From Spirochaetia bacterium (GTDB taxonomy: Bacteria > Spirochaetota > Spirochaetia > CADAEX01), in the NCBI GenBank assembly GCA_963662265.2, contig CAXXHA010000013.1, positions 1 to 64,000 of the forward strand: a stretch of DNA of 64,000 nucleotides. The letters run 5' to 3'. Below are positions 1-57,869 of this stretch, piece by piece; the first letter of the stretch is position 1, and each line of letters begins with the position of its first letter. The notes under the pieces were generated by a model. The model was not told the origin of the DNA and did not search any database. It saw only the letters and a program-made list of their open reading frames with translations. The position numbers and the translations under genes are program-made.

Positions 1-1371
1 ATTGTGAATTAATGATCCGCAGGAATACACCACATTGGGAACATATCCTTCTCTTTCTTCATCATTAGGTATTAAAAGAGGTTCTTCCAGCTGACAAATA
101 ACCTTTTCCGGATTTTCCAGATCAAGAAGAGTAATTCCCAGGCAGTATTCTCTCATTGGACCAACTCCATGTGTTATAAGCAGCCATCCTTTTTCTGATT
201 CAACCGGAGATCCGCAGTTTCCCATCTGAACGAATTCCCATGGATACTTTGGTTCCTCTATTATTTTTGCCTGCTGCCATTCCTGGATATTTTTCGAAAA
301 CATGATGTAATTACTCACACCGTCTATACGTGAGACCATTGCATATTGTCCATTTATTTTCCTGGGGAAAAGAGCCATCCCTTTGTTTTGTGCGCAGTTT
401 CCAAGCAGCGGCTTTACAGCAAAATGATAAAAATCCTTTGTTGTCAGTATTTTAGGCAATATGGCAAATCCATTGTAAGCAGTAAATGTGGCATAATAGT
501 TTACACTGCCATCTTCCTCTGTAAATTTAACAAATCTGGCATCTTCAATACCGTTTTTTTCTGCATCAGAAACAGGAAATATTACCCGTTCAGAAATAGC
601 TGTATCAAGAGAAAATGTTATTTCGTAATGAGCGTTTGCAAGCCAGACCAGAGAATTGATAACATTTTTCTTTGAGTATGATAATTTCACATCCTTAACA
701 CACTGATGTATACTTTCCTGGAGTTCATTATAGGAAAAATTTTCACCAAGCCTTTTCATTATCAGCTCAATAATATCTTTGTGTATATCCATTTCCTCCA
801 GTTTTATATTAAACTGATTTTTATTATATAATGATTTTTTTATAATTTCCGGTTGCTCCACATAATCATTGACCGGTTTAAAACTAATATTATTATTTTT
901 ATCTATTATTCCACTTCTGAACACTATTGAGGAAATATGTCCTTCTCCGGTTGCCCGGAAGCTGGCTATAATTCTTTTATCCCCTTCTTCAAGGTGAGAT
1001 TGATCAGGGTCTTCTATAATGGAGGGATTGAAGAACGCAGCAGATTCAATCGAATATTCGTGGGAGAAATATGAACCTATTAGAAGCTTTCTTTCCGGGG
1101 AAAGAGATTCCTGAGATACATTAAGATCCTTCAGAATATGTGCGATATAGTTGAAATGTCTGTCAAAAATCTTTGTAATGTTTCTATGTCTGTGTGCAAA
1201 GTGTCCCAGTGTCCGTTTAAGAATTTTTTTAACTTCATCCTCTGAAAGGGCAAGTACTTTTTTTATTATATATTCGCCTCTTTCATTTCCCCCCGGCAGG
1301 TAGAAGCGGGTGATGACCCTTTTAGGGTCGGGATAAAACCTGTTTGACATTCTTTTAACTGGTATTGCCAT
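1..1371 (-). CDS. Glycoside hydrolase family 130 (glycosidase/mannoside phosphorylase-like), 3' end outside window
   Basis: Absent from the ORF track because it has no stop in the window. ATG at 1371 (MAIPVKRMSNRFYPDPKRVITRFY) is in frame with C-terminal GH130 motifs WLLITHGVGPMREY and EREGYVPNVVYSCGSLIHN. Confidence 0.85.
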   Translation of the reverse strand, partial: MAIPVKRMSNRFYPDPKRVITRFYLPGGNERGEYIIKKVLALSEDEVKKILKRTLGHFAHRHRNITKIFDRHFNYIAHILKDLNVSQESLSPERKLLIGSYFSHEYSIESAAFFNPSIIEDPDQSHLEEGDKRIIASFRATGEGHISSIVFRSGIIDKNNNISFKPVNDYVEQPEIIKKSLYNKNQFNIKLEEMDIHKDIIELIMKRLGENFSYNELQESIHQCVKDVKLSYSKKNVINSLVWLANAHYEITFSLDTAISERVIFPVSDAEKNGIEDARFVKFTEEDGSVNYYATFTAYNGFAILPKILTTKDFYHFAVKPLLGNCAQNKGMALFPRKINGQYAMVSRIDGVSNYIMFSKNIQEWQQAKIIEEPKYPWEFVQMGNCGSPVESEKGWLLITHGVGPMREYCLGITLLDLENPEKVICQLEEPLLIPNDEEREGYVPNVVYSCGSLIHN

Positions 1372-1595
1372 AATGAATATGTTATCCTATTTTTTCTCTA
1401 TATTAAAAGTTATAATCTATAATAGTGCTAGTTACAATGAATCATAAGATTCTGTAGTCTTTTTTTTATGAATATTTGGCATGAAATACTTATATTATAA
1501 TTATTAACTGTAGAAGGTAATTAAAAACCAAATAACTTAAATTTCTGATATTTTTATTGGATATGGCGGAAATAAAATAATGGCGGTGAATTTTT

Positions 1596-2429
1596 GTGAA
1601 TAATAATGTTTTAAAAACGTTTAACAGTCTTGACTGCAGGATAAAAGATTTAATCAAATTTATTCTATTTGCAGCTTTTATGGTGTATATAATTGCCGAG
1701 GGGGCAGGAACTCTTCAGTATGACTGGCAATGGTTCCGGGTAAAACGGTATTTTTATAAATTCAACGAAACCGGGTTTTATCCAGGCCCCCTGATGAAAG
1801 GATTATTTGTTACAATTAAAATATCCTCTTTAAGTCTTGTTTTTACAGTTCTTATCGGGTTGGCTACTGCAGTTATGAGGCTCTCAAATTCTGTAATGTC
1901 CAGAATTACTGCCAGATTTTATCTTGAAGCTGTCCGGAATACACCACTTCTTATACAGCTGTTTTTTATATACTTTGTTGTCTCTCCGATTTTTAATTTT
2001 TCAGCATTTTTATCAGCTGTAATTGCTCTTTCACTTTTTGAAGGAGCTTATACTTCTGAAATTATCAGGGCGGGGATTCTGGCTGTTCCTCAGGGGCAGT
2101 GGGAAGCTGCTAAAAGTCTTGGAATGGGACAAGCTTCCATATATTTTAGAATAATCTTTCCGCAGTCATTGCGGCAGAGCCTTCCTATTCTGGTCAGTCA
2201 GATAATCTCACTTATTAAAGATTCCTCCCTTGTAAGTACAATTGCAATTTATGATCTCACGATGAGAGGGCAGGAAATTATTGCTGATACTTTTCTCACA
2301 TTTGAAATTTGGTTTACAGTTGCAGCTGTGTATCTTGTAATAACAACCACTTTAAGTGAAGTTGTAAACTACCTTGAAAAGAAGAATAATCGCAAAACAG
2401 GTAAAAAAATATTTGATTCTGAATGCTGA
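1596..2429 (+). CDS. Polar amino acid ABC transporter permease
   Basis: RNTPLLIQLF and AYTSEIIRAGILAVPQGQWEAAKSLG motifs of the HisM/GlnP family. Confidence 0.93.
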   Translation: MNNNVLKTFNSLDCRIKDLIKFILFAAFMVYIIAEGAGTLQYDWQWFRVKRYFYKFNETGFYPGPLMKGLFVTIKISSLSLVFTVLIGLATAVMRLSNSVMSRITARFYLEAVRNTPLLIQLFFIYFVVSPIFNFSAFLSAVIALSLFEGAYTSEIIRAGILAVPQGQWEAAKSLGMGQASIYFRIIFPQSLRQSLPILVSQIISLIKDSSLVSTIAIYDLTMRGQEIIADTFLTFEIWFTVAAVYLVITTTLSEVVNYLEKKNNRKTGKKIFDSEC

Positions 2430-2537
2430 ATCCCCTATCTTAGTAGTATAGATTAAATATTTGGGATATCGGCCGTATTTTTCCGGATGAGATATCATTC
2501 CCGGATAGGTTAATATCGTCTATCAAGGAGTTAAAAA

Positions 2538-3359
2538 GTGAAGAAAATATTATTTGCAGTATTGATTGCAGTAGCTTTGCTGATGGTTTCCTGTTCAGGT
2601 AAATCAGAATCAGCTGAGGAAAAGAAAGAAACAAGTCTTATTGATGAAATTCTGAAAAGAGGCACTCTGAAAGTAGGTATGTCGACATTTGTCCCATGGG
2701 CAATGAAAGATAAGGAAGGCACTCTTATTGGTTTTGAAATTGATGTAGCAAGACGTCTGGCAGAAGATATGGGTGTAGAAATAGAGTTTATCCCGACAAA
2801 ATGGTCAGGAATTATTCCGGCCCTTTTAACAGGTAAATTTGATGTAATAATCGGCGGAATGGGTATAAGGGCTGAAAGAAACCTTAAAGTGAATTTTTCA
2901 ATCCCTTATGATTATACAGGTATGTCTATAGTAGCAGACAGAAAAAGTGTTCCGGGATTTACTAAAATAGAAGATTTTAATAAAAAAGGGTTGGTAATTG
3001 CAGCAAGAATCGGTACAACAGCTGCGACTGCTGTTAAAAAAATCATGCCTGAAGCTGAATTAAAACTTTTTGATGATGAATCACAGGCTGTCCAGGAGCT
3101 TTTAAACGGAAGAGCTGATGCAGTAGTTGCATCAGCACCTCTTCCTGCATATCAGGCATTAAAGTATCCGGAAAAACTTTATCTCCCTTTTGATGACAAT
3201 TTTACAAAAGAGCCGATAGGTTTTGCACTTCGGAAAGGTGATGTTGATACACTGAATTTCTTTAACAGCTGGATAACTGTTGTTGAATCAGAGGGCTGGC
3301 TTGCTGAAACAAAGCACTATTGGTTTAATACCAGAGACTGGGCATCAAGAATAGAATAA
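2538..3359 (+). CDS. Polar amino acid ABC transporter substrate-binding lipoprotein
   Basis: Lipobox (MVSC), GFEIDVA...WSGIIPALLTGKFDVII (SBP_bac_3); AAGGAG RBS. Confidence 0.93.
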   Translation: MKKILFAVLIAVALLMVSCSGKSESAEEKKETSLIDEILKRGTLKVGMSTFVPWAMKDKEGTLIGFEIDVARRLAEDMGVEIEFIPTKWSGIIPALLTGKFDVIIGGMGIRAERNLKVNFSIPYDYTGMSIVADRKSVPGFTKIEDFNKKGLVIAARIGTTAATAVKKIMPEAELKLFDDESQAVQELLNGRADAVVASAPLPAYQALKYPEKLYLPFDDNFTKEPIGFALRKGDVDTLNFFNSWITVVESEGWLAETKHYWFNTRDWASRIE

Positions 3360-3387
3360 TTTAAACAAGAAATATAACGGATTATAT

Positions 3388-3422
3388 AAAAGCTGCAGAG
3401 TTTTAAGCTTTGCAGCTTTTTT
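3388..3422 (+). terminator. Intrinsic terminator/stabilising hairpin after SBP gene
   Basis: AAAAGCTGCAGAG...CTTTGCAGCTTTTTT. Confidence 0.7.
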
Positions 3423-3429
3423 AAATGAG

Positions 3430-4329
3430 TTGTTGCAAATGGGTAAGGCAGTGGAAAAAAAAGAACTGAAAATTACATGGCTTGATTATCTGATTTCTCT
3501 GATAATAATTGGGACAGTTGTCTTCATTTTTTACAGACTAAAGGCCGGGCTTAATTACAAGTGGAGATGGGAGGTTCTTCCTCAGTATATTATCAGGAGA
3601 AAATCTGACGGAAGCGGTGTTGTCCCCGGTTTATTGATGCAAGGATTTTTTGTAACACTGAAGATTAGTATATGGTCTACAATAATTGCTACGCTAATTG
3701 GTGTTGTAATGGGGGTTATAAGAAGCGGTTCCGGTTTTTTCTCGAAAATATCAGGCTGGCTCTATGTTCAGATTGTGAGAAATATTCCCCCCTTGGTTCT
3801 GGTTTTTATTTTTTACTTTTTTTTCAGCAGTTTTATTATTGATTTTTTCGGTATAGATGATTGGGTTTTAACTTTGACTCCCTCAGGAAGGAAAATCCTT
3901 GCTTTTTTATTTGTTTCCCCTTCTCGTTTCTCTTCTTTTATATCAGCTGTTATTGCAATGAGTATTTATGAAGGGGCTTATATTACAGAAATTGTCCGGG
4001 CCGGTATTAATTCTGTCGCCTCGGGGCAGTGGGAGGCATCCCGTGCGCTGGGTTTGAGCGGAAACCAGATTCTTCGGTATGTTGTTCTTCCCCAGGCGCT
4101 GCGGAATATTCTCCCCCCCCTGTCAGGGCAGTTCATTTCTACAATAAAAGACTCTGCTATTGTCTCTGTTATCTCGATTCAGGAGCTGACATTTCAGGGG
4201 CTTGAAATAATGGCAGCAACATATCTTACATTTGAAATATGGATTACTATAACAGTTCTTTATTTTGTCATGACTTTTACATGTTCTATTGCGTTTGAAA
4301 AGCTTTTTTTATATTTTAAGAGAAACTGA
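3430..4329 (+). CDS. Polar amino acid ABC transporter permease
   Basis: RNIPPLV, AYITEIVRAGINSVASGQWEASRALG; true start may be ATG 3439 or GTG 3451. Confidence 0.92.
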   Translation: MLQMGKAVEKKELKITWLDYLISLIIIGTVVFIFYRLKAGLNYKWRWEVLPQYIIRRKSDGSGVVPGLLMQGFFVTLKISIWSTIIATLIGVVMGVIRSGSGFFSKISGWLYVQIVRNIPPLVLVFIFYFFFSSFIIDFFGIDDWVLTLTPSGRKILAFLFVSPSRFSSFISAVIAMSIYEGAYITEIVRAGINSVASGQWEASRALGLSGNQILRYVVLPQALRNILPPLSGQFISTIKDSAIVSVISIQELTFQGLEIMAATYLTFEIWITITVLYFVMTFTCSIAFEKLFLYFKRN

Positions 4330-4404
4330 TTAATTAAGAGGGGATTATATCCCTTAATAAGTATATAATTGGTAAAAATAATTATGAAACAAAAGGGATA
4401 AGAC

Positions 4405-5367
4405 ATGATCTGGGCGGAATTTTCCATTACAGCTGTACTTGTAATATTTTTCGGTTATAAGCTTTCTGATAAAGCTGATAAGCTTGCAGAGATCAAAGGG
4501 TTCGGCAAAGGTGTCGTAGGATTTATTCTTCTTGGTTTTGCTACTTCTCTACCGGAACTGATTGCTACTGTGTCTTCTACTCTTCTTCTTGATAACCCTG
4601 ATCTCGGTGCAGGTAATATAATAGGAAGCAATAATGCAAACCTGTTTATCCTTGCTGTTTCCCTTCTTTTTGTACTTTCTCTGAGAAAAAAGAATAATGC
4701 GCTTGATGTTGAAAGTCTTGTTTCCCTTTCTTTCTGTTTTCTGACCGCATCTGTTTTTTTTGCCGCATTTCTTTTCGGAGGAAGACCTGTATTCGGAAAG
4801 GTCTCATTGTTCAGCATCCTTATGCTGATTTTCTTTTTTGCAAGTATATCAGCCCTTACACAGCACAGTTCTGATGAAGAAGGAGATGAAAGAGATCCCG
4901 GACATGCAGGGCCTGTTTTTTACACACTTCTTATCTTCTATATAATAGTGCTTGTTGTTGTAAGTTATTACCTTGCAGGTGTTGTCGAAAGGATCAGTAT
5001 TCTGACCGGATTGAGCTCATCTTCTGCAGGCGCGATATTTCTTGCATGGGCTACTTCTCTTCCTGAACTTGTTGTCACTATTTCTGCGATTATCATTGGA
5101 AGCAGTGAAATGGGTATCGGTAATATCCTTGGCAGCAATATTTTTAATTTTGCAATTCTTTCAATTGCTGATTTTCTTTCAAAAAGCAGTAAGTCTATCT
5201 ATGAGGCAGGTCCAGAAATTCCTGTTCTTACTGCAGTGCACTTTTTCATTCTTTCCATTCTTATGTACATGGTTTCAGCTAAAAAACTCCCCCGGTGGTG
5301 GAAGCTTTCCCCGCTTTCTATCCTGATTGCTGCTGTTTATATTGGGGGACTTCTTCTTATCCTGTAG
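4405..5367 (+). CDS. Sodium:calcium (CaCA/YrbG-like) antiporter
   Basis: Two alpha repeats ATSLPEL...GNIIGSN and ATSLPEL...GNILGSN. Confidence 0.9.
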   Translation: MIWAEFSITAVLVIFFGYKLSDKADKLAEIKGFGKGVVGFILLGFATSLPELIATVSSTLLLDNPDLGAGNIIGSNNANLFILAVSLLFVLSLRKKNNALDVESLVSLSFCFLTASVFFAAFLFGGRPVFGKVSLFSILMLIFFFASISALTQHSSDEEGDERDPGHAGPVFYTLLIFYIIVLVVVSYYLAGVVERISILTGLSSSSAGAIFLAWATSLPELVVTISAIIIGSSEMGIGNILGSNIFNFAILSIADFLSKSSKSIYEAGPEIPVLTAVHFFILSILMYMVSAKKLPRWWKLSPLSILIAAVYIGGLLLIL

Positions 5368-5592
5368 GTAAAAATCATCAGCAAGCTTGATTGCACTGGA
5401 TCAGACTGAAATGATATTCCCGCAGGTTCAGTTATCTGTTCTGTATTTTCTTTACGGATTTCCAATGCTTCTGTTTGATAAAGTGATTTTCTGTTGATAA
5501 TGTGAATCCTGCCACAATAAAGATACATTTTTGTAAATTAATGCAACTGTAAAGTTTATTAAGAAAACTGCCTCGATTTTTTTTCTTTTACC

Positions 5593-5620
5593 TTGACATT
5601 TTTCGGGGTGCTATTACAAT
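5593..5620 (+). promoter_or_regulatory. Sigma70-type promoter of V-ATPase operon
   Basis: TTGACA-N16-TACAAT, 35 nt upstream of the first ATG. Confidence 0.55.
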
Positions 5621-5655
5621 TGAATCATAAATAACGACTCTGTGCGAGGATTATA

Positions 5656-6276
5656 ATGGAAGTCCAACTTAAGGAACTAATTGAAAAAATTAAGAAAGAC
5701 GGCGTTGAAACAGCGGAAGGAAAAGCTTCTCAGATTGTAAAAGATGCGGAAGCTAAAGCTGCTGAAATTGTAGCAAAAGCAAACAATGACGCCGCTCAGA
5801 TTGTGGCAAAGGCAAAAGAAGATGCGGCAAAATCTGAGCAGACTGGCGAGGAAGCTTTAAAACAGGCAGGTAGAGACCTTGTTTTAAATCTTCAAACACA
5901 AATCACAGATCTTTTCAATGTAATTATTAAAGACGAAGTTGCATCAGCAATGGATGAAAAGGTTCTGGGTGAAACTATTGTTAAGCTGATCAGCTCCTGG
6001 AAAGGTGATGTGTCAAAAATTCAGGTTCTTGTGTCTGAAAATGATCTTAACAATGTAGAAAAAAATCTGAAAGCTAAGCTTGCTGATAAGATTAAAAAAG
6101 GTTTTGAAGTTAAAGCTTCCAAAAACCTTGATGCAGGATTTCTTGTTTCAGAAAAAGATGGTTCTGCTTATCATAATTTTTCAGCTGAAGGTATTGCAGA
6201 AGTATTATCAGATTATCTGAACCCCAAACTGGCAGCGCTTGTAAGCGATGGGGTCAAGGGTAAAGCGGAGGCATAA
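5656..6276 (+). CDS. atpE: V-type ATP synthase subunit E
   Basis: MEVQLKELIEKIKKDGV coiled-coil N-terminus; first gene of V-ATPase operon. Confidence 0.9.
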   Translation: MEVQLKELIEKIKKDGVETAEGKASQIVKDAEAKAAEIVAKANNDAAQIVAKAKEDAAKSEQTGEEALKQAGRDLVLNLQTQITDLFNVIIKDEVASAMDEKVLGETIVKLISSWKGDVSKIQVLVSENDLNNVEKNLKAKLADKIKKGFEVKASKNLDAGFLVSEKDGSAYHNFSAEGIAEVLSDYLNPKLAALVSDGVKGKAEA

Positions 6277-6279
6277 GCC

Positions 6280-6816
6280 TTGGCAAATCAGTATTACTAC
6301 ACAGTATCTTCTTTGCCCATGTTATTTCTGGATTCTGAAAAATTCATGTCACAAGAGGAATTTTTCGAATGCTGCGAAACTACTATCTCTGAAAAAGATT
6401 TCAACACACTCAAATCTGCAAAAATTCTACCTGAAGAAAATCCTGACAACAGTGTTCTTGTAAAATGGAATAACTGGGAAAAGAGTTTAAGGGATGAACT
6501 TGTAAAATTAAGAGCAGCTAAAAAAGGTGTTGACGCTGACAAATACTCAAGCGGTAATGCAGGGGAATCAGGTGTTTTTGAACTAGCGAGGGATGCATTT
6601 AATGCTTCAACACCTCTCGAAGCTGAAACACTTCTTAACAGGGGCAGATGGGAGTATCTTGAGATGCTTGAATCCGGTCATTTCTTTGACCTCGGAAAGC
6701 TGATTATCTATTATCTTCAGCTTCAGATTCTTGAAAGAAAATCTCAGATCAACCACGAAAAAGGACAGCAGAATTTTAAAACCCTTTATTCGACAATTCT
6801 TGGAAAAGAAGAGTAA
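6280..6816 (+). CDS. V-type ATPase subunit C-like (DUF2764 family)
   Basis: YYYTVSSLPML start and HFFDLGKLIIYYLQLQILER; lies between subunits E and A. Confidence 0.8.
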   Translation: MANQYYYTVSSLPMLFLDSEKFMSQEEFFECCETTISEKDFNTLKSAKILPEENPDNSVLVKWNNWEKSLRDELVKLRAAKKGVDADKYSSGNAGESGVFELARDAFNASTPLEAETLLNRGRWEYLEMLESGHFFDLGKLIIYYLQLQILERKSQINHEKGQQNFKTLYSTILGKEE

Positions 6817-6874
6817 TAAAAATAAATTTTTGTTTTTAGGGTAAAAGAAGGACTGATTGTTGTAGAGGTAATTT

Positions 6875-8656
6875 ATGAATAAGAGTACAGGAAAGGTTGT
6901 CGGTGTAAACGGCAACATGGTAACTATCGAGGTTGAAGGTGAAGTCCTGATGAACGAAGTGGGGTATATCAAGGTAAATACCCCTGAAGGAGAAAAAAGC
7001 CTAAAGTCCGAGGTTATCCGAATTAACGGAAGCAATGCGGACCTGCAGGTCTTTGAAATGACCCGGGGAATCGGGATAGGCGACAGTGTGGAACTTACAC
7101 AGAACATGCTTGCCGTATCTCTCGGACCCGGTCTTCTCGGTAAAGTATATGACGGTCTTCAGAACCCGCTCCCTGAACTTGCAGAGGAATGCGGATTCTT
7201 CCTTGACAGGGGGGTATATCTCCCTGCGCTTCCAGAGGAAGTAAAATGGAAATTTACACCTGCTGTAAAAGCAGGCGATACAGTTGCAAGAGCAGATACA
7301 GTAGGAACAGTGCCTGAAGGTATTTTTAACCACAGGATTATGGTTCCTTTCAATATGTATGATACATATACAGTTAAATCAGTAGCAGCTGAAGGTGAAT
7401 ACACAGTTAATGATAAAATTGCAGAAATTGAAGATTCAAAAGGCAATGTTTATCCTCTGACAATGAAGTTTGAATGGCCGGTAAAAAGAGCAATTAATGC
7501 ATATGCAGAAAGACTCAAACCGGTAGATCCAATGGTAACAAAGGTAAGACTTGTAGATACATTCATGCCTGTTGCCAAGGGCGGTACATACTGTATCCCT
7601 GGTCCTTTCGGTGCCGGGAAAACAGTACTTCAGCAGATTACAAGTAAGAACGCTGAGGTTGATATAGTAATTATTGCTGCCTGCGGTGAACGAGCAGGGG
7701 AAGTTGTAGAAACTCTTAAAGAGTTCCCTGAACTTACAGACCCTAAAACAGGCAGATCTCTCATGGAGAGAACAATTATTATCTGTAATACAAGTTCAAT
7801 GCCTGTAGCTGCACGAGAAGCATCTGTATATACAGCTGTAACTCTCGGTGAGTACTACAGGCAGATGGGACTTAGTGTTCTTCTTCTTGCAGACTCAACA
7901 TCACGTTGGGCACAGGCGATGAGGGAGATGTCAGGACGTCTCGAAGAGATTCCCGGTGAAGAAGCATTCCCTGCTTATCTTGAATCAGTTATTGCTTCTT
8001 TCTATGAAAGGGCAGGTCTTGTAAGACTTAAAGACGGTACAGAAGGATCTGTTACAATCGGAGGAACAGTATCTCCTGCAGGCGGTAACTTTGAGGAACC
8101 TGTAACTCAGGCGACTCTTAAGGTAGTAGGTGCATTCCACGGTCTTTCAAGAGAGAGATCTGATGCTAGAAAGTATCCTGCGATCCACCCGCTTGAAAGC
8201 TGGAGTAAATACAAAGGTTCTGTAGATGCTGAAAAGACAGAATATGCAAGAGATATTCTTTTCAGAGGAAACGATGTTGGTCAGATGATGAAGGTTGTTG
8301 GTGAAGAAGGTACAAGTACTGATGACTATATCCTCTTCTTAAAGAGTGATCTTCTTGATTCAGTTTATCTTCAGCAGAACTCATTTGATGCAGTCGATAA
8401 TGCTGTAACTGTTGAGAGACAGAGACACATTTTTGAAGTAATCCTGAAAATTCTTTCTGCTAAATTCGATTTTACAGTTAAAGATGAAGCAAGACAGTAT
8501 TTTAATAATATGAGACAGCTCTTCCTTGACTATAACGGTACTCTCTGGGGTTCCGAGGATTTTAAAGCGAAAGAAAAAGAGTTACTTGAACATATTTCTT
8601 CTAAGCAGATTGGTGTTGAAGAAAACGCGGCTGAGCTGCTGGCAAATAATAATTAA
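6875..8656 (+). CDS. atpA: V-type ATP synthase subunit A
   Basis: Walker A GPFGAGKT, ACGERAGE, ADSTSRWAQA, PGEEAFPAYL. Confidence 0.97.
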   Translation: MNKSTGKVVGVNGNMVTIEVEGEVLMNEVGYIKVNTPEGEKSLKSEVIRINGSNADLQVFEMTRGIGIGDSVELTQNMLAVSLGPGLLGKVYDGLQNPLPELAEECGFFLDRGVYLPALPEEVKWKFTPAVKAGDTVARADTVGTVPEGIFNHRIMVPFNMYDTYTVKSVAAEGEYTVNDKIAEIEDSKGNVYPLTMKFEWPVKRAINAYAERLKPVDPMVTKVRLVDTFMPVAKGGTYCIPGPFGAGKTVLQQITSKNAEVDIVIIAACGERAGEVVETLKEFPELTDPKTGRSLMERTIIICNTSSMPVAAREASVYTAVTLGEYYRQMGLSVLLLADSTSRWAQAMREMSGRLEEIPGEEAFPAYLESVIASFYERAGLVRLKDGTEGSVTIGGTVSPAGGNFEEPVTQATLKVVGAFHGLSRERSDARKYPAIHPLESWSKYKGSVDAEKTEYARDILFRGNDVGQMMKVVGEEGTSTDDYILFLKSDLLDSVYLQQNSFDAVDNAVTVERQRHIFEVILKILSAKFDFTVKDEARQYFNNMRQLFLDYNGTLWGSEDFKAKEKELLEHISSKQIGVEENAAELLANNN

Positions 8657-8668
8657 GGGGCAGAAGGA

Positions 8669-9970
8669 ATGCGTAAGGTTTACAGTAAAATAGAATCAAT
8701 TGCAGGAAACGTAATTACAGTTACTGCTGACGGGGTAAAGTATGATGACCTTGCTGAAGTAAGTTCAGCTCACGGTAAATCACTTGCCCAGGTCATCAGG
8801 CTTAACGGTGATAAGGTTGCCCTTCAGGTTTTTGCAGGTGGTAGAGGTATTTCAACAGGTGATGAAGTAAGATTCCTTAACCATCCAATGCAGGTTTCCT
8901 TTTCAGAAAATCTTCTCGGAAGAATTTTTGACGGGGGGGGGAAACCAAGAGATAATGGACCTGAACTTAAAGATAACATGATTGAGATCGGGGGTCCTTC
9001 AGTTAACCCTGCAAAAAGAATTATTCCGGTTAACATGGTAAGAACTGGTATCCCTATGATTGATGTATTCAACTCTCTTGTTGAATCTCAGAAACTTCCT
9101 ATTTTCTCATCTTCAGGGGAACCATACAATGAACTCCTTGCACGAATTGCGATGCAGGCGGAAGTTGATATGATTATCCTTGGTGGTATGGGACTTAAAT
9201 ATGATGACTATCTCTTCTTTAAAGATACACTTGAAGAGGGTGGAGCATTAAGTAGAACAACATTCTTTGTTCATACAGCTTCTGACCCGATTGTTGAGTG
9301 TCTTCTTGTACCTGATATGTCTCTTGCAGTAGCAGAAAAATTTGCTCTTGAAGGTAAAAAAGTACTTGTACTTCTTACTGACATGACAAACTTTGCAGAT
9401 GCTATGAAAGAGGTTGCGATCACTATGGAACAGGTGCCTTCCAACCGAGGTTATCCTGGAGACCTTTACTCACAGCTTGCATCCCGATATGAGAAAGCTG
9501 TTGACTTTGAAGGAGCAGGATCTATTACAATCCTTGCAGTAACAACTATGCCTGGTGATGATGTAACTCACCCTGTACCTGATAACACAGGATATATTAC
9601 AGAGGGACAGTTCTATCTTAAGAACGGAAGGATTGAGCCTTTCGGTTCACTTTCCAGGCTTAAACAGCAGGTTAATAAAGACACAAGAGAAGACCATAGA
9701 GCTCTCATGGATGGAATGATCAAACTGTATGCGGCATACAAGGAATCACTTGAAAAGAAATCAATGGGTTTCAGAATGTCAGACTGGGATACAAAACTCC
9801 TTGAATACGGTGCTACTTTCGAAAGAGAACTCATGGACCTTTCTGTAAATATTCCTCTTGAAAAAGCTCTTGATAAGGGCTGGGAAATATTTGCCAAGTG
9901 TTTCAAACCTGAGGAAACAGGTATGCGATCAGAACTCCTTAATAAGTTCTGGCCGAAGGAAGAGAAATAG
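8669..9970 (+). CDS. atpB: V-type ATP synthase subunit B
   Basis: [35 protein letters not shown]. Confidence 0.97.
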
Positions 9971-50718: not shown

Positions 50719-51618
50719 TCATAATAAAACAGAAATTACAAAAACTGCTGAATAAATAAAAACAAACTCAAGAAACAGATCAGAAATAATATTCATTGAG
50801 AACCCCTTTGTTTCTGCGTTCAGTCCTTTTTTAAAGAGTTTTGTCAGTTTTTTTATTGCCAGAAAAAGATAAACAGGTATGCCGAAAAGCTGGTAAGCTG
50901 TGATATAACCCATGATGACCGCATATATGACTGAAGCTGCAGCAGCAAGTGATTCGAAGATGATAATGTACCTGGAAAATGTTTCACCGGAAATTATTGA
51001 AAGTGTTTTTCTTCCCGCTTCCCTGTCTCCTGTCATGTCGCATGTATTGTTTACTGTAAGAATCTGTGCAACTGTGAAAAACAGGGGAAGTGATGCAGTA
51101 AATGAAGAAGCTGTGAATGTGCCTGTCTGTACAAAGCAGACAAGCATAAAAAGAACTGTTCCCAGAAATCCCCCTGCTGCGATTTCTCCGAAAGGGGTGA
51201 ATGATATGGGTCTCGGCCCTGCTGTATAGAAGAAGCCGACTGCCATGGAAAAAGCTCCTAGCGGGATAAGCACAAGCCCCTTCCAGAACGCAAGAACAGT
51301 TCCCGTTACAGCTGCAAGAAAAAAAAGTGAAAGAGCTGTAATAAGAGCATTTCCCGGGTCGACATTTTCATGGATAAGTACTTTATCTTTTTCCATGTTG
51401 TGTTTTTTATTGTCAACACCTTTAAGATAATCGAAATATGTATTGAATGCAGTTGTTCCCATATCAATGCAGAGAACAGCAGCCAGCATAAGAAGGGCGG
51501 CTCCTGTATTGAATGTTATTCCGATTGAATACATATAAGCTGTTGCAGCTGCATAGGTTCCTATACTTACTATTTTTGTCCTGATTTCTATTATTGAATA
51601 AAACTGTTTCAGATTCAT
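50719..51618 (-). CDS. menA: 1,4-dihydroxy-2-naphthoate prenyltransferase (MenA/DmkA-like)
   Basis: FNTYFDYLKGVD, YTAGPRPIS, NNTCDMTGDREAGRKTL. Confidence 0.85.
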   Translation of the reverse strand: MNLKQFYSIIEIRTKIVSIGTYAAATAYMYSIGITFNTGAALLMLAAVLCIDMGTTAFNTYFDYLKGVDNKKHNMEKDKVLIHENVDPGNALITALSLFFLAAVTGTVLAFWKGLVLIPLGAFSMAVGFFYTAGPRPISFTPFGEIAAGGFLGTVLFMLVCFVQTGTFTASSFTASLPLFFTVAQILTVNNTCDMTGDREAGRKTLSIISGETFSRYIIIFESLAAAASVIYAVIMGYITAYQLFGIPVYLFLAIKKLTKLFKKGLNAETKGFSMNIISDLFLEFVFIYSAVFVISVLL

Positions 51619-51654
51619 ATGATTATTTTGATTTTCTGTTTACTGAAGACTGAT

Positions 51655-51682
51655 AAAAAAACCGGGATATTTCCCGGTTTTT
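51655..51682 (-). terminator. Intrinsic terminator after secreted protein gene
   Basis: AAAAAACCGGGA-TATT-TCCCGGTTTTT. Confidence 0.65.
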
Positions 51683-51686
51683 ATTG

Positions 51687-52403
51687 TTATCTTTTTACAG
51701 CATCAAGGTCGCCTGATATGGTCAGAATATTTCCTTTCAGTTCTGCCTTCAGAGTACCTTTCCAGTAATACATTGATTCAGGAGAAGCCCCGTCCTTGAA
51801 TATTTTACCTGTTTTTTTACCGCTTCCGGGAGCAACTTCTTTTCCTCCCGGTATAGAAGAATTCCAGACCTTTTTCCAGTCAACTTTATCTGCCATACCG
51901 TTTGAAGAGAAGTCTTTTGAAATAACCTGAGGTTTCCCTCTTGGAATGAATCCTATTGCTCTCTTTTCAAATGATCCGTCAGGCAGTGAGATGTTGCCGT
52001 TTCTATCTGTAATAATTTTATAAGCTGTCCCCCTGTGTGTATACTGTATTGTTATTACACCGTTTACATTTTTTGCATTAAGATTGTCGATTTTTGCCTG
52101 TTCAGAACCTGCAACACCGAAAAGAAAAAGTCCCCTCAATCCATCTGCAAGGGCATTTTTCCCTTTTACATCGTATCGATACGGCTGAAACATTTCTGTT
52201 GATTTTTTTATTGAAGCACCCGAGACAGCGTCATAGTGGTCTTTATCAGCTGCCATGTATCTTATAGGTCCTTTAAATGAAAAGTAACTTGTTTTTGTCT
52301 TGCCTGAAACATCTACCTGGTAATCTATTGAAAGATCAGCAGCAAAAACAAATCCTCCGAGCAGAAACATTAATAATACTGTTATCAGAATTTTATTTTT
52401 CAC
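51687..52403 (-). CDS. Secreted protein with ApbE flavinylation motif (DAVSGAS)
   Basis: GTG 52403 after GGAGG; signal peptide ending VFA; DAVSGAS encoded at 52212-52232. Confidence 0.7.
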   Translation of the reverse strand: MKNKILITVLLMFLLGGFVFAADLSIDYQVDVSGKTKTSYFSFKGPIRYMAADKDHYDAVSGASIKKSTEMFQPYRYDVKGKNALADGLRGLFLFGVAGSEQAKIDNLNAKNVNGVITIQYTHRGTAYKIITDRNGNISLPDGSFEKRAIGFIPRGKPQVISKDFSSNGMADKVDWKKVWNSSIPGGKEVAPGSGKKTGKIFKDGASPESMYYWKGTLKAELKGNILTISGDLDAVKR

Positions 52404-52621
52404 TTCTACAACCTCCATGATTTTTTGATTGTTGATAATAAAATTATTCAACGATTATTGATATATGTCAATTATTTTCCTATTATTTCTATAGGAATAA
52501 GGCTTAAATGTGTTAAATATACTGGACTTTTCATCCTTCGCATTTGATAATTATTATATTGAACTGTATCAGTTTAAAAATAATTGAATATTATGAAAAA
52601 GAAATTATATATGGAGGCTGT

Positions 52622-54817
52622 ATGGATACCAGGAAAATTGTAATACTTGGCGGCGGTTATGCCGGTATAGAGGCTGCCGGGAAACTATATAAACACTTCA
52701 GGAAAGACAAATCTGTTGAAATAACTGTAATTGACAGGAATACATATCATACACTCATGACAGAGCTGCATGAAGTTGCCGGTTCCAGGGTAGTCCCTGA
52801 TTCTGTGATGATAAGCTACGAAAGAATTTTTTCCGGAACAGATATAAAGCTTGTCAGTGATAATATAATTGGAATTGATTATGAGAAAAAGATACTTGTT
52901 TCTGATTTGAATCGTTATGAATATGATTATCTGATATTGGGAACAGGGGGTGCTCCTGAATTTTTTGATCTTCCCGGAATACAGGAAAATTCATTTTCTC
53001 TCTGGTCTCTTGAGGATGCAGTCAAAATCAGGGAGCATATTGAGGAGCAGTTCCGTCTTGCCGCAAAAGAACCTGATAAAGACAAAAGGGAAAAGATGCT
53101 GACATTCACGGTTGCAGGAGCAGGGTTTACAGGTATAGAGCTGATAGGCGAGATTGCAGAAAGAAAAGATATACTGTGCAGGAGATATCATATAGATGCA
53201 AGTTGTGTAAACCTGATTGTGATTGAAGCACTTGATTCGATTCTGCCGATTATTGAAGAAAATCTGAGAGCAAAAGCGTTTAAGTATATGAGAAAAAAGG
53301 GAATTCAGGTATTTCTCGGGAAAAGAATACTTGAAGTTTCAGATGGAAGCGTTGTTCTTGATGATGGGACAGAAATTGATGCAGGTACTTTTGTCTGGAC
53401 CTGTGGTATTCATGGATCTGAATTTACTTCCCGCATTGATATAGAAAAAGGGAGCGAAGCATTCGGTAAATGCAGCATTGCATCGGCAAGCGGAATACAC
53501 GGTATGAGCGGAAGCAGGTTTGAAGTAGATGAGATCAGGTTAGTGGCAAAGAGGGGGAGGATACTTGTCAATAAATTCATGCAGACTCCTGATCATCCTG
53601 ATATCTATGCTGTCGGTGATAATATGTGGTTTATTGAAGATGAAAAGCCCCTTCCCCAGATTGTTGAGACAGCACTTCAGACAGGTAAAACAGCAGCTGA
53701 AAATATAATTGCAGATATAAAAGGTCTGGAAAAGAAAGCCTTTAAATCAAACTATCACGGGTTCATGGTCTCAATAGGGAGCAGATATGCTGTTTCAAAT
53801 GCAGGAGGGCTGAAGCTTTCCGGTTTTTTTGCGATGGCTATGAAGCATATTGTCAATCTTCATTATCTTTTCGGTCTTGCCGGCCTGAATACTGTATGGG
53901 GGTACCTGAAACATGAGTTTTTCGATATGAAAGACAGGCGGACTTTTATCGGTGAACACCTTTCATGGAAGATTCAGGGTTGGTGGGGAGTTCCTCTCCG
54001 GCTCTGGCTGGGTATTATGTGGCTTGCCGAAGGTGCCAATAAGATTGGTGAGGGATGGCTCTCTTTTTCTTCAGGCTCAAAATCCGGATGGATGTTCAGC
54101 CCGGGAGTAATACAGAGAGGTGTTGAAGTTGCACCTGATGCAGTAGGTTCAGCGACAGGAGCAGCGGAAGGAGCGGCTGAGTATGCTGCAGATGTGGTAA
54201 CAGCAGCGACAGGAGCAGCGGAAGGAGCGGCTGAATATGCGGCAGATGCGGTAACCGCAGCGACAGGAGCAGCGGAAGGAGCGGCTGAATATGCGGCAGA
54301 TGTGGTAACCGCAGCGACAGGAGCAGCAGAAGGTGCTGTTGAAATAGCAGCAGATCATATTGCCTGGGCATTCGGTAAAATATGGGATACAGGCAAATCA
54401 ATTATTCCGTATGATTCCTTTATTGTTACATGGTTCAGGGAAACTTTCATGGATAACATGATGGCTTATATCAGTTATCCCCTGTTTCAGTTAATGATAG
54501 TTTCAGTTGAAATTGCTATAGGGCTTGCCCTTCTGGGCGGACTTTTTACATGGCTTGTAGCTGCAGGATCTATCGCAATGTGCGGTGTATTTATACTTTC
54601 CGGAATGTTCAGCTGGGATCAGCTCTGGTTTGTATTTGGAGCTTTTCTCCTTCTCGGCGGTGCAGGCAGGAGTTTCGGGTTTGATCACTGGGTAATGCCT
54701 TTTATTAAAAGACTGTGGAATGCTTCATCAATAGCCAGGAAAACTCATCTCTATATAAATGAACCTGTCAGCAGAAAGAAGGGTAAAATAAACAAGGCTG
54801 AAGGAAAAAATAAATAA
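52622..54817 (+). CDS. ndh: Type II NADH:quinone oxidoreductase with C-terminal DoxX/TQO-like membrane domain (Ndh2/EET-like)
   Basis: GGGYAG, GAGFTGIE, YAVGD, PQIVETALQ; C-terminal LRLWLG...EIAIGLALLGG...GAGRSFGFD; ATG 52622 after GGAGG. Confidence 0.88.
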   Translation: MDTRKIVILGGGYAGIEAAGKLYKHFRKDKSVEITVIDRNTYHTLMTELHEVAGSRVVPDSVMISYERIFSGTDIKLVSDNIIGIDYEKKILVSDLNRYEYDYLILGTGGAPEFFDLPGIQENSFSLWSLEDAVKIREHIEEQFRLAAKEPDKDKREKMLTFTVAGAGFTGIELIGEIAERKDILCRRYHIDASCVNLIVIEALDSILPIIEENLRAKAFKYMRKKGIQVFLGKRILEVSDGSVVLDDGTEIDAGTFVWTCGIHGSEFTSRIDIEKGSEAFGKCSIASASGIHGMSGSRFEVDEIRLVAKRGRILVNKFMQTPDHPDIYAVGDNMWFIEDEKPLPQIVETALQTGKTAAENIIADIKGLEKKAFKSNYHGFMVSIGSRYAVSNAGGLKLSGFFAMAMKHIVNLHYLFGLAGLNTVWGYLKHEFFDMKDRRTFIGEHLSWKIQGWWGVPLRLWLGIMWLAEGANKIGEGWLSFSSGSKSGWMFSPGVIQRGVEVAPDAVGSATGAAEGAAEYAADVVTAATGAAEGAAEYAADAVTAATGAAEGAAEYAADVVTAATGAAEGAVEIAADHIAWAFGKIWDTGKSIIPYDSFIVTWFRETFMDNMMAYISYPLFQLMIVSVEIAIGLALLGGLFTWLVAAGSIAMCGVFILSGMFSWDQLWFVFGAFLLLGGAGRSFGFDHWVMPFIKRLWNASSIARKTHLYINEPVSRKKGKINKAEGKNK
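54131..54356 (+). repeat. 54-bp in-frame tandem repeat (~4 copies; 18 aa ATGAAEGAAEYAADVVTA)
   Basis: AGCGACAGGAGCAGC recurs at 54151, 54205, 54259 and 54313. Confidence 0.95.
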
Positions 54818-54834
54818 ATACAAGGACTGGATAT

Positions 54835-55800
54835 TTGGTTAACGCAGTTTTAAACAGACTACATTTGGAAAAGGATCTTGAAAAGGTAAGGGAAGTAATC
54901 CTTTCTGCTTCTGATGATTCAATTCCTGTTGTCAGGGAATGTATTGAATCAATTGTTGCTTCAGGCGGGAAAATGCTCCGCCCTTTGTTTCTGATATTAT
55001 CATCCCGGATAGGGGGTGCTGACCCTGAGAGGGTCTACCGGCTTGCTGCTGGAATTGAGCTTCTTCATATATCTTCCCTTATTCATGATGATATTATTGA
55101 TAACTCCAGTAAAAGAAGGGGAATCCCCGCAGTACACAAAGTATATGGTGTAAAAAACGGAGTACTTCTGGGCGATTATTTTTTCTCACAAAGCATATCG
55201 CTTCTGACAGAAAAAATGATGATGGAAAACAGTTCTGCCGCTGCAAAGACTGTTTCGAGGATTTGTGAGAGCGAGATACTGCAGAATATTGAGAATGCGG
55301 AAAAAGACTTCAGGTTAAGGACTTATATAAGGCATATTACCGGGAAAACTGCTGTGCTTTTTATTCTCAGTTTCCATCTGGGAGCTGTTGAGGGGGGATG
55401 CTCAGGAGAGCTGCAGTCAGTATTCAGAAAGATCGGATATAATACCGGGATTGCTTTCCAGATTATAGACGACATACTTGATTTTACAGGCAGGGAAAAC
55501 AAGGTCGGAAAACCTGTGGGAAATGATCTGAGAAACGGAATTATAACTGCGCCTGCGATTTTTGCAGTACAGGAAGATCCTTCAATGGTTAATCTGCTGA
55601 GCTCTTCCAATCTCTTTAATAAAAGCAAAATAAATAAATTTATCAGTATGACAGTAAAGAACGGAGCAATTGGAAGATCCCGAAAACTGGCTTCCTCCTA
55701 CACTGACAGGGCAATAAAAGAGATAGGTAACCTGCCTGAAGGGAATGTTAAAACTGCACTACATGAACTTGTAAGCTCCCTTCTTGTCAGGGATTATTAA
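54835..55800 (+). CDS. Polyprenyl diphosphate synthase (HepT/DmkB-like)
   Basis: GGKMLRP, HDDIIDNSSKRRG, KTA, FQIIDDILD, GKPVGNDL. Confidence 0.92.
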   Translation: MVNAVLNRLHLEKDLEKVREVILSASDDSIPVVRECIESIVASGGKMLRPLFLILSSRIGGADPERVYRLAAGIELLHISSLIHDDIIDNSSKRRGIPAVHKVYGVKNGVLLGDYFFSQSISLLTEKMMMENSSAAAKTVSRICESEILQNIENAEKDFRLRTYIRHITGKTAVLFILSFHLGAVEGGCSGELQSVFRKIGYNTGIAFQIIDDILDFTGRENKVGKPVGNDLRNGIITAPAIFAVQEDPSMVNLLSSSNLFNKSKINKFISMTVKNGAIGRSRKLASSYTDRAIKEIGNLPEGNVKTALHELVSSLLVRDY

Positions 55801-56000
55801 TTCAGGGAGACAGCTGTACAGGGTATTTCCCTCCTCTGTTTTTCTCTGAATAATTTTCAGTTTTATATACATGATCTTCAGCCAGTTTTTGTTTTTCAGT
55901 ATTTTCTGATTGATTTCAAAATTAGAAATAAGAACTGCTGGATTAATAAAAAATGAGCAGATATGTCTGTCATTTAATATTAAAAAGAAAGGAAAGATTT

Positions 56001-56654
56001 ATGAATATTTCAGATATAATCAATAAAAGGCATGCTGTTAAAAGTTTTGATCCTGACAGGACGATAGAGCTTGATAAAATAAAGCAGCTTGAAAAAATAT
56101 TAAGGCTCAGCCCTTCATCAGTAAATCTTCAGCCCTGGCATTATATTATTGCAGGTACACAAGAGGGAAAGAAGCTGATAGCGGAATCAGCAACAGGCCA
56201 GTTCGCATATAACAGGGATAAAATACTCAACGCTTCTCTTGTTGTTGTCTTCTGTTCAAAGAAATCTCTTGATGATGAATATCTTAAAGGATTGATTGAG
56301 CAGGAGGATAAGGACGGCAGGTTTAAAGATGACAGGGCAAGGGAAGTTCAGTATGGTGTTAAATCCGGTTTTTCAGATCTGCACCGTAAAGAATTCCATG
56401 ACCCGGAAGAGTGGATGAAGCGCCAGGTTTATCTTTCTGCCGGTTTTTTTCTCATGGGTGCAGCTTCCCTTGATATTGATACCTGTCCCATGGAGGGATT
56501 TGACAGCAGAAAGCTGGATAAGCTTCTCAGTTTAAATAAAAGGGGATTTGAATCTTCTGTTATTGTTGCTGCAGGATACAGAAGCAGCGATGATTTTAAC
56601 GCATCTCTGCCTAAATCCAGACTGCCTTCAGATTCAGTTATAACAAGGATCTGA
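56001..56654 (+). CDS. nfsB: Oxygen-insensitive NAD(P)H nitroreductase (NfsB-like)
   Basis: RHAVKSFD, SPSSVNLQPWH, QVYL, CPMEGFD, DFNASLPKSRL. Confidence 0.88.
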   Translation: MNISDIINKRHAVKSFDPDRTIELDKIKQLEKILRLSPSSVNLQPWHYIIAGTQEGKKLIAESATGQFAYNRDKILNASLVVVFCSKKSLDDEYLKGLIEQEDKDGRFKDDRAREVQYGVKSGFSDLHRKEFHDPEEWMKRQVYLSAGFFLMGAASLDIDTCPMEGFDSRKLDKLLSLNKRGFESSVIVAAGYRSSDDFNASLPKSRLPSDSVITRI

Positions 56655-56692: not shown

Positions 56693-57361
56693 TCAGATCA
56701 GACTGTTGAGCAGTTTTTTATCTTTTATTCTGATTCCGGGATATCCAGTACCAATTGCTTCTTCAGAAGCAAGTTCTTTCAATACCCTGTTGAGATGTCT
56801 GACTGATGTTCCCAGCATGGAAGCCAGGACCTCTTTTTCCGGTAGAATAATCACATTGCTGCTGCCTGATTCAGGACGAGTCATTATATAGAGTGCAAAT
56901 CTTGATTTTACCGGAAGAATATGGCCAAGTATCAATGAGGTTGAAAAGTAAAGTTTATCGACAAGCTGCTCAATAATAAATCTCAGAAAAACAGGATCTT
57001 CAAGACCGTGTTTCCTTACTTTATCCATTGGTATACCAAGAAGAACAGATGGTGCTGTTGTCATTACTGCAGTGGAGGCAGGATTGTTATTCAATATTTC
57101 CACATCCCCGAGTGCAGTAAGCGGTTTTGAGATTGCGACAACAGCCAGGGTCCCGTTTGCATTGTAATGAGCACATCTCAGTTCCCCTTCCACAAGGAGG
57201 TAGAACATTGGAATTTCTTCCTGCTCCGGGAAGATTGTTTTATAGGATTCAAATCTGTACATTTTCATGTTTTCAATGAGAACTGAGTTGAGAATATTTT
57301 TCAGACTGTATTTATCTGTATAATAATCAATTGTTTTGCCGGTGGTTTTCTCTTTTTCCAA
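56693..57361 (-). CDS. Crp/Fnr family transcriptional regulator (YeiL-like)
   Basis: cNMP domain (LGDVE) plus HTH LASMLGTSVRHLNRVL. Confidence 0.88.
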   Translation of the reverse strand: MEKEKTTGKTIDYYTDKYSLKNILNSVLIENMKMYRFESYKTIFPEQEEIPMFYLLVEGELRCAHYNANGTLAVVAISKPLTALGDVEILNNNPASTAVMTTAPSVLLGIPMDKVRKHGLEDPVFLRFIIEQLVDKLYFSTSLILGHILPVKSRFALYIMTRPESGSSNVIILPEKEVLASMLGTSVRHLNRVLKELASEEAIGTGYPGIRIKDKKLLNSLI

Positions 57362-57545: not shown

Positions 57546-57869
57546 TTGGTAATGTTTAGAAAAATACCATTATTTATATCTTTTATTATGGTGGAAAAGT
57601 CAGAGTCTGCGGAATCAGGTAATAAACTAGATAATAAACTAGATAATAAACTAGATAATAAACTAGATAATAAACTAGATAATAAACTAGATAATAAACT
57701 AGATAATAAACTAGATAATAAACTAGATAATAAACTAGATAATAAACTAGATAATCCTGCAGAACTGGACAGCGGAAAAAAATACTCCCATTATTCAGAT
57801 ATTGCAGAGGGAAATGCCCTGAATGATGCGGAACGGGAAGCAAAGTCATTGCTGTACAGGATGGTTTGA
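57546..57869 (+). CDS. Small hypothetical protein with (NKLD)11 repeat
   Basis: AGGAGG RBS; the repeat keeps frame; downstream hairpin at 57876-57900. Confidence 0.45.
   Translation: MVMFRKIPLFISFIMVEKSESAESGNKLDNKLDNKLDNKLDNKLDNKLDNKLDNKLDNKLDNKLDNKLDNPAELDSGKKYSHYSDIAEGNALNDAEREAKSLLYRMV
57621..57755 (+). repeat. 12-bp tandem repeat (AATAAACTAGAT) x11
   Basis: Perfect copies 57621-57752. Confidence 0.97.

Follow-up and report, generated by a model that had tools for sequence, protein, structure and literature searches.

Can a spirochaete pass electrons from NADH, by way of a quinone, to flavins attached to exported proteins? The question is raised by a divergent four-gene locus in a 64,000 nt stretch of DNA (hereafter the window) from a Spirochaetia bacterium (CADAEX01; assembly GCA_963662265.2, 90.6% complete; contig CAXXHA010000013.1, positions 1 to 64,000). 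One pair of genes encodes a MenA-like prenyltransferase and a secreted protein, which we call SEC; the other encodes an NADH dehydrogenase with a DoxX-like C-terminal membrane domain, which we call Ndh-DoxX, and a HepT-like polyprenyl diphosphate synthase. An earlier reading of the sequence (the original prediction) had taken these genes for a Listeria-type locus of flavin-based extracellular electron transfer (FLEET), with a secreted protein other than PplA in the place of PplA. All four open reading frames (ORFs) are present, with identities assigned from Pfam and NCBIfam. The usual view of free-living and host-associated spirochaetes is that they simply ferment and have neither respiratory quinones nor cytochromes. 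On the evidence set out below, we lean towards the view that the locus encodes a spirochaete, periplasm-directed, FLEET-like chain for flavin-based electron export, in which SEC would do the job of PplA with an unrelated fold.

SEC, which matches no Pfam or NCBIfam model, has an N-terminus that reads by inspection as a signal peptide (MKNKILITVLLMFLLGGFVFA/ADL, apparently ending at VFA/ADL); some homologues carry a lipobox, and a crude test finds a signal-like N-terminus in 105 of 115 distant representatives of at least 180 aa. The motif to which ApbE attaches flavin mononucleotide (FMN) is D-x-x-[S/T]-G-A-[S/T], with Ser accepted less well than Thr as the final residue, and in flavin-tagging experiments these seven residues suffice by themselves (PMC12052999). 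The DAVSGAS sequence that the original prediction had singled out lies at residues 74-80 and is a full match to this motif. The strict form, D..[ST]GA[ST], is kept by 113 of 120 close family members and a looser form by 119, so the motif is not a chance occurrence. In an alignment of 23 SEC sequences with a mean column identity of 54%, D74, A79 and S80 are invariant. Elsewhere in SEC, HRGTAY and GPIRY are conserved as well. Among the 115 distant representatives, 90 have the strict motif and 100 the looser form; in the remainder, Q, H, K or E replaces the Gly. From motif, localisation and gene context together, we infer that SEC is flavinylated; it is a candidate new class of ApbE substrate, which would carry FMN on Ser80.

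A protein collection clustered at 90% identity holds 243 relatives of SEC, and every named source is a member of the Spirochaetota; at 50% identity, the family amounts to 160 clusters among 1.84 billion representatives. SEC founds a small, apparently spirochaete-only family that has not been described before. Its AlphaFold model (pLDDT 90.7, pTM 0.81) has no look-alike among solved structures: the best Foldseek match in the PDB has an E value of 0.086, and a wide comparison with VIA-align gave a best Z score of 4.1 (root-mean-square deviation 3.7 Å, 84 aligned residues). PAS-like structures appeared at VIA-align Z scores of 3.0-3.6, and matches of this order are far too weak for naming a fold. 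The FMN_bind, DUF2271 and DUF3570 models match none of the 23 aligned SEC members at E values up to 10. There are precedents for ApbE substrates outside FMN_bind: DUF2271 and DUF3570 were found through gene context and then confirmed (PMC8238504), and Flavodoxin_4 and FMN_red are further substrates (PMC11334425). SEC resembles these proteins in its [S/T]GA[S/T] motif and its association with ApbE, but it matches none of them, nor the NqrB/RnfD substrate domain, and appears restricted to Spirochaetota. Among spirochaete proteins, a comparable case is TP0171 (Tp15) of Treponema pallidum, a lipoprotein of 143 aa that has an FMN-binding domain of the NqrC type and receives its flavin from Ftp/ApbE at Thr114 (PMC4436053). 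The likeness to SEC lies in a soluble, periplasmic spirochaete protein with a D-x-x-S/T-G-A-T/S motif; by contrast, SEC would have about 217 aa when mature, from residue 38 to residue 254 of its ORF, lacks an FMN_bind match, and bears the motif close to its N-terminus, where Ser would be the acceptor.

Ndh-DoxX is the fusion that the original prediction had described. Judged by sequence, its N-terminal domain is a true type II NADH dehydrogenase (NDH-2): Pfam recognises Pyr_redox_2 (E value 1.4e-35), the two dinucleotide-binding motifs GGGYAG and GAGFTG are present, and the N-terminal 418 residues match the solved NDH-2s of Caldalkalibacillus (4NWZ; E value 5e-66), B. subtilis (Ndh, 9PXK; 2e-62) and S. 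aureus (5NA1; 1.5e-52). We rejected identity as a sulfide:quinone reductase, for which the E value is only 5.8e-7. The membrane domain is equally real, although its DoxX (PF07681) match is weak, at 19.2 bits against a gathering cut-off of 23.6; many homologues carry precomputed PF07681, and ESM Atlas feature matches of homologues to DoxX/DoxD clusters, at 0.77-0.82, are a lead only. This C-terminal part, of about 310 residues, consists of a first helix, an acidic, Ala-rich loop (about 110-130 residues, nearly none of them basic), three more helices and a Lys/Arg-rich tail. The NDH-2 domain has to lie in the cytoplasm, and the positive-inside rule would then place the loop on the periplasmic side. 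Fused proteins of this kind, of 650-790 aa, are common in Spirochaetota, with named sources that include Marispirochaeta, Sediminispirochaeta and Treponema; since all named relatives of SEC and Ndh-DoxX are Spirochaetota, the earlier attribution of the DNA to a probable spirochaete is supported. Complex prediction of SEC with the DoxX-like domain returned a score of 0.00, which weighs neither for nor against binding.

The loop may have a role of its own. In the window, it reads DVVTAAT, DAVTAAT and DVVTAAT, which are ApbE-like motifs with Ala replacing Gly; this change in the ApbE motif cuts the yield to about half (PMC12052999). Across 100 homologue loops, D..[ST][GSA]A[ST] has 150 matches, in 58 of the loops; composition-preserving shuffles average 2.5 matches and never exceed 7. 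Such counts overstate the number of separate events because the copies are tandem and related sequences are not independent. The looser [DE]..[STA][GSA]A[ST] is present in 98 of the 100 loops, and repeat copy number differs among relatives, from 0 to 6 motif copies. These patterns suggest that the loop itself may bear ApbE-attached FMN on Ala-for-Gly sites, and its motifs are a concrete candidate for the step, so far missing from FLEET-type systems, by which electrons leave quinol for extracytosolic flavoproteins.

A protein search of a plasmid collection gave one match, in Acetoanaerobium noterae (Clostridia; NZ_CP154629.1), where the gene order of an uncharacterised locus is ndh (671 aa), pps (the polyprenyl synthase gene), menA-like, a two-repeat lipoprotein gene and a gene for a lipoprotein ApbE (Pfam E value 3.5e-69). 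The two Ndh proteins are collinear over 723 columns, membrane domain included (36% identity, E value 3e-137), the synthases are 30% identical (1e-38) and the MenA-like proteins 29% (2e-24); the clostridial loop carries the same motif, as DAVSAAT and DAVTAAT. By contrast, the Acetoanaerobium genes are co-directional and include ApbE and the repeat lipoprotein, and there is no SEC homologue; SEC has no similarity to the clostridial lipoprotein (E value 0.92). NZ_CP154629.1, which is labelled a plasmid, spans 2.63 Mb with 4 annotated features and looks like a chromosome or chromid; the FLEET-like locus in it is unannotated.

By gene content, the Acetoanaerobium locus can be matched to the FLEET locus reported for Listeria monocytogenes, with dmkA, dmkB, fmnB, pplA, ndh2, eetA, eetB and fmnA (PMC8837199, PMC8238504 and, in part, general knowledge). 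Our likening of the window's locus to that of Listeria rests on gene lists, with the Acetoanaerobium locus as the bridge. The shared elements are an NDH-2 with a membrane domain, MenA-like and HepT-like genes, an ApbE-family transferase and an exported protein that bears the motif. The differences are that the spirochaete host is diderm, that its ApbE is unlinked, and that SEC is unrelated to PplA and FMN_bind and resembles no solved structure in its fold; a Pfam scan detects no PplA-type FMN_bind lipoprotein in the window's locus. The Listeria-type label stands in part: the full-length Ndh, the synthase and the MenA-like protein are homologous to those of the clostridial ApbE locus, whereas the MenA-like and HepT-like proteins fall below equivalog cut-offs. 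The term extracellular goes beyond the evidence; in a diderm host, the most likely end point of the chain is the periplasm. Méheust et al. describe an 'EET system' as an NDH-2 with a transmembrane helix within an ApbE or FMN-bind gene cluster (PMC8238504), and 'clade D' comprises transmembrane NDH-2s of Bacillota linked to extracellular electron transport (Nat Microbiol 2026, PMC13524794). Ndh-DoxX resembles clade D in being anchored by transmembrane helices, a likeness of description; the clade is defined on Bacillota alone. Our literature search found no paper describing such a locus in spirochaetes, and the stem 'spiroch' has 0 occurrences in the main text of PMC8238504 (the large supplement is outside that scope) and 0 in PMC13524794.

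We next turn to the genes found around Ndh-DoxX in other genomes, using 80 metagenome loci retrieved with the membrane domain. The polyprenyl synthase lies directly downstream in all 65 loci with enough flank, so the two genes form a fixed pair. Upstream, where at least 3 kb is available in 42 loci, ndh is adjoined by ApbE, a weakly FMN_bind-like repeat lipoprotein or SEC in 23, by a MenA-like gene only in 1, and by none of these in 18; an unrelated helicase is the upstream neighbour in 15 loci. The divergent slot beside ndh is filled, lineage by lineage, with different flavinylation-related genes. The idea of a non-PplA protein in PplA's position fares well: SEC is unrelated to FMN_bind and PplA-like proteins, and elsewhere the same slot holds an FMN_bind-like lipoprotein or ApbE. 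The commonest divergent neighbour is a three-repeat lipoprotein, whose repeats measure about 125 aa and close with a DDIAGA[ST]-like sequence (23 of the 80 loci; also L029, L031, L035 and L068). It matches FMN_bind weakly in one locus (27.6 bits in L031) and not at all in another (L138), and may be a divergent, multi-flavinylated analogue of PplA.

Around SEC itself, we collected 64 loci, all taken from genomes that represent their species. In at least 11 of them (12 with a weak NDH-2-only match in L037), Ndh-DoxX is encoded no more than 8 kb from SEC, a lower bound because several loci are short. Breznakiella homolactica RmG30 (L036) and Pleomorphochaeta sp. DL1XJH-081 (L068) are cultured relatives with both SEC and Ndh-DoxX. 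Three arrangements recur. The first is that of the window, seen also in its closest relative (L005); in the second, an SEC that is only 33-36% identical is divergent from ndh-pps(-menA), followed by rnfCDGE; in the third, which four loci of the Sphaerochaeta/Pleomorphochaeta type display, ndh-pps is accompanied by genes for ApbE, SEC, the three-repeat FMN_bind-like lipoprotein, a NusG_II protein and a membrane protein without annotation. Homologues of this membrane protein, the NusG_II protein and the three-repeat lipoprotein were not found in the window's genome. A flavin or quinone neighbour is present in 14 of the 64 loci, counting ApbE (L020) and fumarate-reductase-like genes (L046). For SEC genomes without an adjacent ndh, we searched 50 of 52 at the genome level, omitting L009 (the same organism as L008) and L067: 48 of the 50 encode Ndh-DoxX elsewhere and 48 encode ApbE, which by hand comparison of positions lies no more than 3 kb from Ndh-DoxX in 14.

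Searching the window's genome for apbE and for men and mqn genes, we found a single ApbE and none of the genes for 1,4-dihydroxy-2-naphthoate (DHNA) or the early futalosine steps. The ApbE (301.6 bits) is a lipobox lipoprotein encoded in a housekeeping context at C41:15204-16229, on contig C41; as anticipated, none is encoded in the window and the enzyme would act in trans. As for the quinone, the MenA-like protein is best described as the UbiA-superfamily member closest to MenA, with a putative substrate, and the HepT-like protein as a trans-polyprenyl synthase of putative chain length. A second pair of Ndh-DoxX and polyprenyl synthase, 65% and 45% identical to those of the window, is encoded on contig C32 (positions 997-8905, L149), divergent from an operon for a menaquinone decarboxylase of the futalosine type, which scores 643 bits on TIGR03701 (cut-off 496). 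The operon also encodes UbiX, a UbiA-like prenyltransferase that stays below the cut-offs of the MqnP models, and the binding protein and permease of an SsuA-like ABC transporter, which is a possible importer of a quinone precursor. Late quinone steps encoded twice, with no head-group pathway found, fit precursor scavenging, and the head group would need to be scavenged since the DHNA and early futalosine genes were not found; Lactiplantibacillus plantarum needs added DHNA (PMC9888254), and dependence on an external head group here would be a further parallel with FLEET systems. Neither cytochrome bd nor MenG over its cut-off was found in the genome, so a role of the quinone in aerobic respiration is unlikely.

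In the chain that we favour, the cytoplasmic NDH-2 domain, whose identity is clear, would oxidise NADH and reduce a prenylated carrier of the naphthoquinone type, which the MenA-like protein and the polyprenyl synthase would build from a scavenged head group. The fused DoxX-like domain would re-oxidise the quinol, perhaps by means of FMN bound to the loop, and electrons would then reach SEC, which the sole lipoprotein ApbE would have flavinylated on Ser80. SEC would in turn reduce a periplasmic acceptor, for which the candidates are Fe(III) or an anchored fumarate-reductase-like enzyme. A possible acceptor of the latter kind is the FAD_binding_2 protein encoded at C34:37349-38683 (fumarate/urocanate-reductase-like), which has an N-terminal signal anchor but itself lacks FMN_bind. 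We offer a broader proposal more tentatively, as possible rather than probable: that SEC is a new structural class of ApbE-flavinylated periplasmic carriers, fed by FMNs on the repeated D-x-x-S/T-A-A-S/T sites of the Ndh loop, and the counterpart of periplasmic c-type cytochromes in cytochrome-less spirochaetes, with the loop as the quinol-to-flavoprotein step of FLEET-type pathways. Bacillota would be included, because the clostridial Ndh bears the same loop motif.

If the favoured chain exists, a quinone-linked flavin route for discharging electrons from NADH into the periplasm would call for a new reading of spirochaete redox balance and iron reduction, and would bear on the frequent enrichment of spirochaetes on electrodes and iron oxides; the part of PMC13374861 that records one such enrichment makes no gene-level claim. 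SEC would add a further class of ApbE substrate, one whose fold is without a counterpart among solved structures.

Several findings weigh against this favoured reading. Linkage of the four genes, which the original prediction had expected to be conserved, is rare: the complete set occurs in 4 of the 64 SEC loci (L005, L060, L063 and L066), SEC lies beside Ndh-DoxX in only 4 of the 80 Ndh-centred loci, and about 50 of the 64 SEC loci have no recognisable redox neighbour. In a sample of 301 genomes from the phylum, SEC is found in 10 and Ndh-DoxX in 11, and both only in the window's own genome, so each can work alone. The other nine SEC-positive genomes belong to one family and encode distant SEC homologues (27-36% identity), and Ndh-DoxX was not found in them. 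We fetched 11 loci around distant homologues, 10 of which have the SEC ORF; nine of these ORFs keep a motif whose fifth residue is Gly or Ser, and the tenth reads DAVSNAS. In two of the loci (L154 and L158), SEC is the last gene after rnfC-D-G-E-A(-B) on the same strand, and in four (L156, L160, L162 and L163) it adjoins lipoproteins that unite FMN_bind with FAD_binding_2 and are of the flavinylated fumarate-reductase type. SEC is thus tied to flavin-based extracytosolic redox systems generally, and not to Ndh-DoxX alone. The RnfG of L154 (374 aa) has two FMN_bind stretches.

These neighbourhoods suit an alternative in which SEC is a flavinylated general periplasmic carrier that serves any membrane flavin complex (Rnf or Nqr-like) or flavoenzyme, its adjacency to ndh reflecting shared regulation. 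The fumarate-reductase-like genes that adjoin SEC in L046, the roughly 50 SEC loci without a nearby ndh and the Rnf operon in the window's genome all agree with it. Nonetheless, we consider this explanation a serious but improbable one, since the divergent arrangement of SEC and ndh recurs at 33-36% SEC identity, since Ndh-DoxX is present in 48 of the 50 searched genomes that encode close relatives of SEC, as opposed to 11 of 301 in the phylum sample, and since the slot that SEC occupies holds an FMN_bind-like lipoprotein or ApbE in other lineages.

To the contrary findings must be added two that concern flavinylation: 25 of the 115 distant SEC representatives lack the strict motif, and the acceptor residue in SEC is always Ser, whereas ApbE is reported to prefer Thr. 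Together with the absence of any match to a known flavin-binding domain and of any structural relative in our searches, they would be expected if SEC were not flavinylated at all, D-x-x-S/T-G-A-S being a structural or ligand-binding loop and the locus a quinone-reducing NDH-2 module for redox balance. We think this unlikely. The seven-residue motif stays constant across 27-97% SEC identity, and SEC is an exported protein that time and again has ApbE, Rnf, FMN_bind proteins and Ndh-DoxX as neighbours. Moreover, an exposed motif alone is enough for ApbE (PMC12052999), and DUF2271 and DUF3570 were recognised by the same logic before their confirmation (PMC8238504).

The enzymes that would make the chain work raise further difficulties. 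The best NCBIfam matches of the MenA-like protein are DHNA polyprenyltransferases, below their equivalog cut-offs (NF009926, 154.4 bits against 316; TIGR00751, 58.2 against 102.15), and the HepT-like protein scores 228.5 bits against a cut-off of 456.55 for TIGR02748. No MenB, no member of the MqnA/MqnD family and no MenD over its cut-off was found in the 90.6%-complete genome. The presence of ApbE is not specific evidence for SEC, because ordinary clients of the enzyme are encoded as well: RnfG and RnfD in the Rnf operon (contig C11), an RnfD-like and FMN_bind pair (C16), and an FMN_bind protein beside FeoB (C1). This last protein (C1:78361-79478 and flanks) is exported and has the motif DDVSGAT; its gene is flanked on one side by those for a small secreted protein and FeoB and on the other by that for a periplasmic binding protein. 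This is the pairing of flavinylation with iron uptake that Méheust et al. have described (PMC8238504).

A quinone-linked function could also lie elsewhere. DoxX/DoxD proteins of other organisms have proposed roles in thiol, sulfur or oxidative-stress chemistry, and the DoxX/DoxD-like features of the membrane domain, the nitroreductase and ferredoxin-nitroreductase fusion encoded near the locus and a CoA-disulfide-reductase-like gene near the C32 module would suit such chemistry in the membrane, with no electron export to periplasmic flavoproteins, but we judge this very unlikely, given an N-terminal domain far closer to NDH-2 than to sulfide:quinone reductase, an Ndh collinear with that of the clostridial ApbE-containing locus, and the flavinylation-related genes that adjoin ndh in 23 of 42 loci.

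Table 1. Features of the locus and its immediate neighbours (window coordinates)
Feature	Position	Strand	Remarks
MenA-like (DmkA-like) UbiA-family aromatic prenyltransferase, 299 aa	50719..51618	-	Pfam UbiA, E value 1.7e-25
SEC, secreted, ~238 aa, candidate ApbE substrate	51687..52403	-	ORF open up to 52451 (254 aa); no Pfam/NCBIfam match
DAVSGAS, full ApbE flavinylation motif	52212..52232	-	Residues 74-80 of the 254-aa SEC ORF; Ser80 is the predicted FMN acceptor
FNR/Crp-like palindrome TTGATATATGTCAA, SEC/ndh divergent intergenic region	52458..52471	+	Match to TTGAYNNNNRTCAA
Ndh-DoxX, NDH-2 (residues 1 to ~418) with DoxX-like four-helix membrane domain (53876-54817)	52622..54817	+	731 aa from the ATG at 52622; ORF open from 52544
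54-bp tandem repeat, 3.8 copies	54150..54355	+	Encodes the acidic, Ala-rich loop that joins the first two membrane helices; tandem-repeat search
HepT/DmkB-like long-chain polyprenyl diphosphate synthase, 321 aa	54835..55800	+	Pfam polyprenyl_synt, E value 2.4e-61
NfsB-type NAD(P)H nitroreductase	55953..56654	+	NF008275, 300 bits against cut-off 227; neighbour, candidate member of the system only
Crp/Fnr-family regulator	56693..57361	-	cNMP_binding and HTH_Crp_2

The start of SEC is probably the GTG at 52403, because family members have about 238 aa and GGAGG lies upstream, and that of Ndh-DoxX is probably the ATG at 52622, because GGAGG precedes it and homologue lengths and starts agree; with these starts, the divergent intergenic region measures 218 bp. 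The pattern TTGAYNNNNRTCAA, which we take to be an FNR/Crp-like consensus, has a single match in the window (TTGATATATGTCAA), where 0.87 is expected. The box is conserved in L005 and absent from 60 of 60 other ndh upstream regions, and we dropped it as a family feature. The nearby Crp/Fnr-family regulator is a possible regulator of the SEC/ndh divergent promoter; a Crp-family gene lies near Ndh-DoxX in 12 of the 80 metagenome loci. Both this regulator and the nitroreductase are syntenic in L005. Beyond them, the ORF at 57546-57869, to which we assigned no family match, consists mostly of about 11 tandem KLDN repeats, and a long ORF on the opposite strand spans the same repeat.

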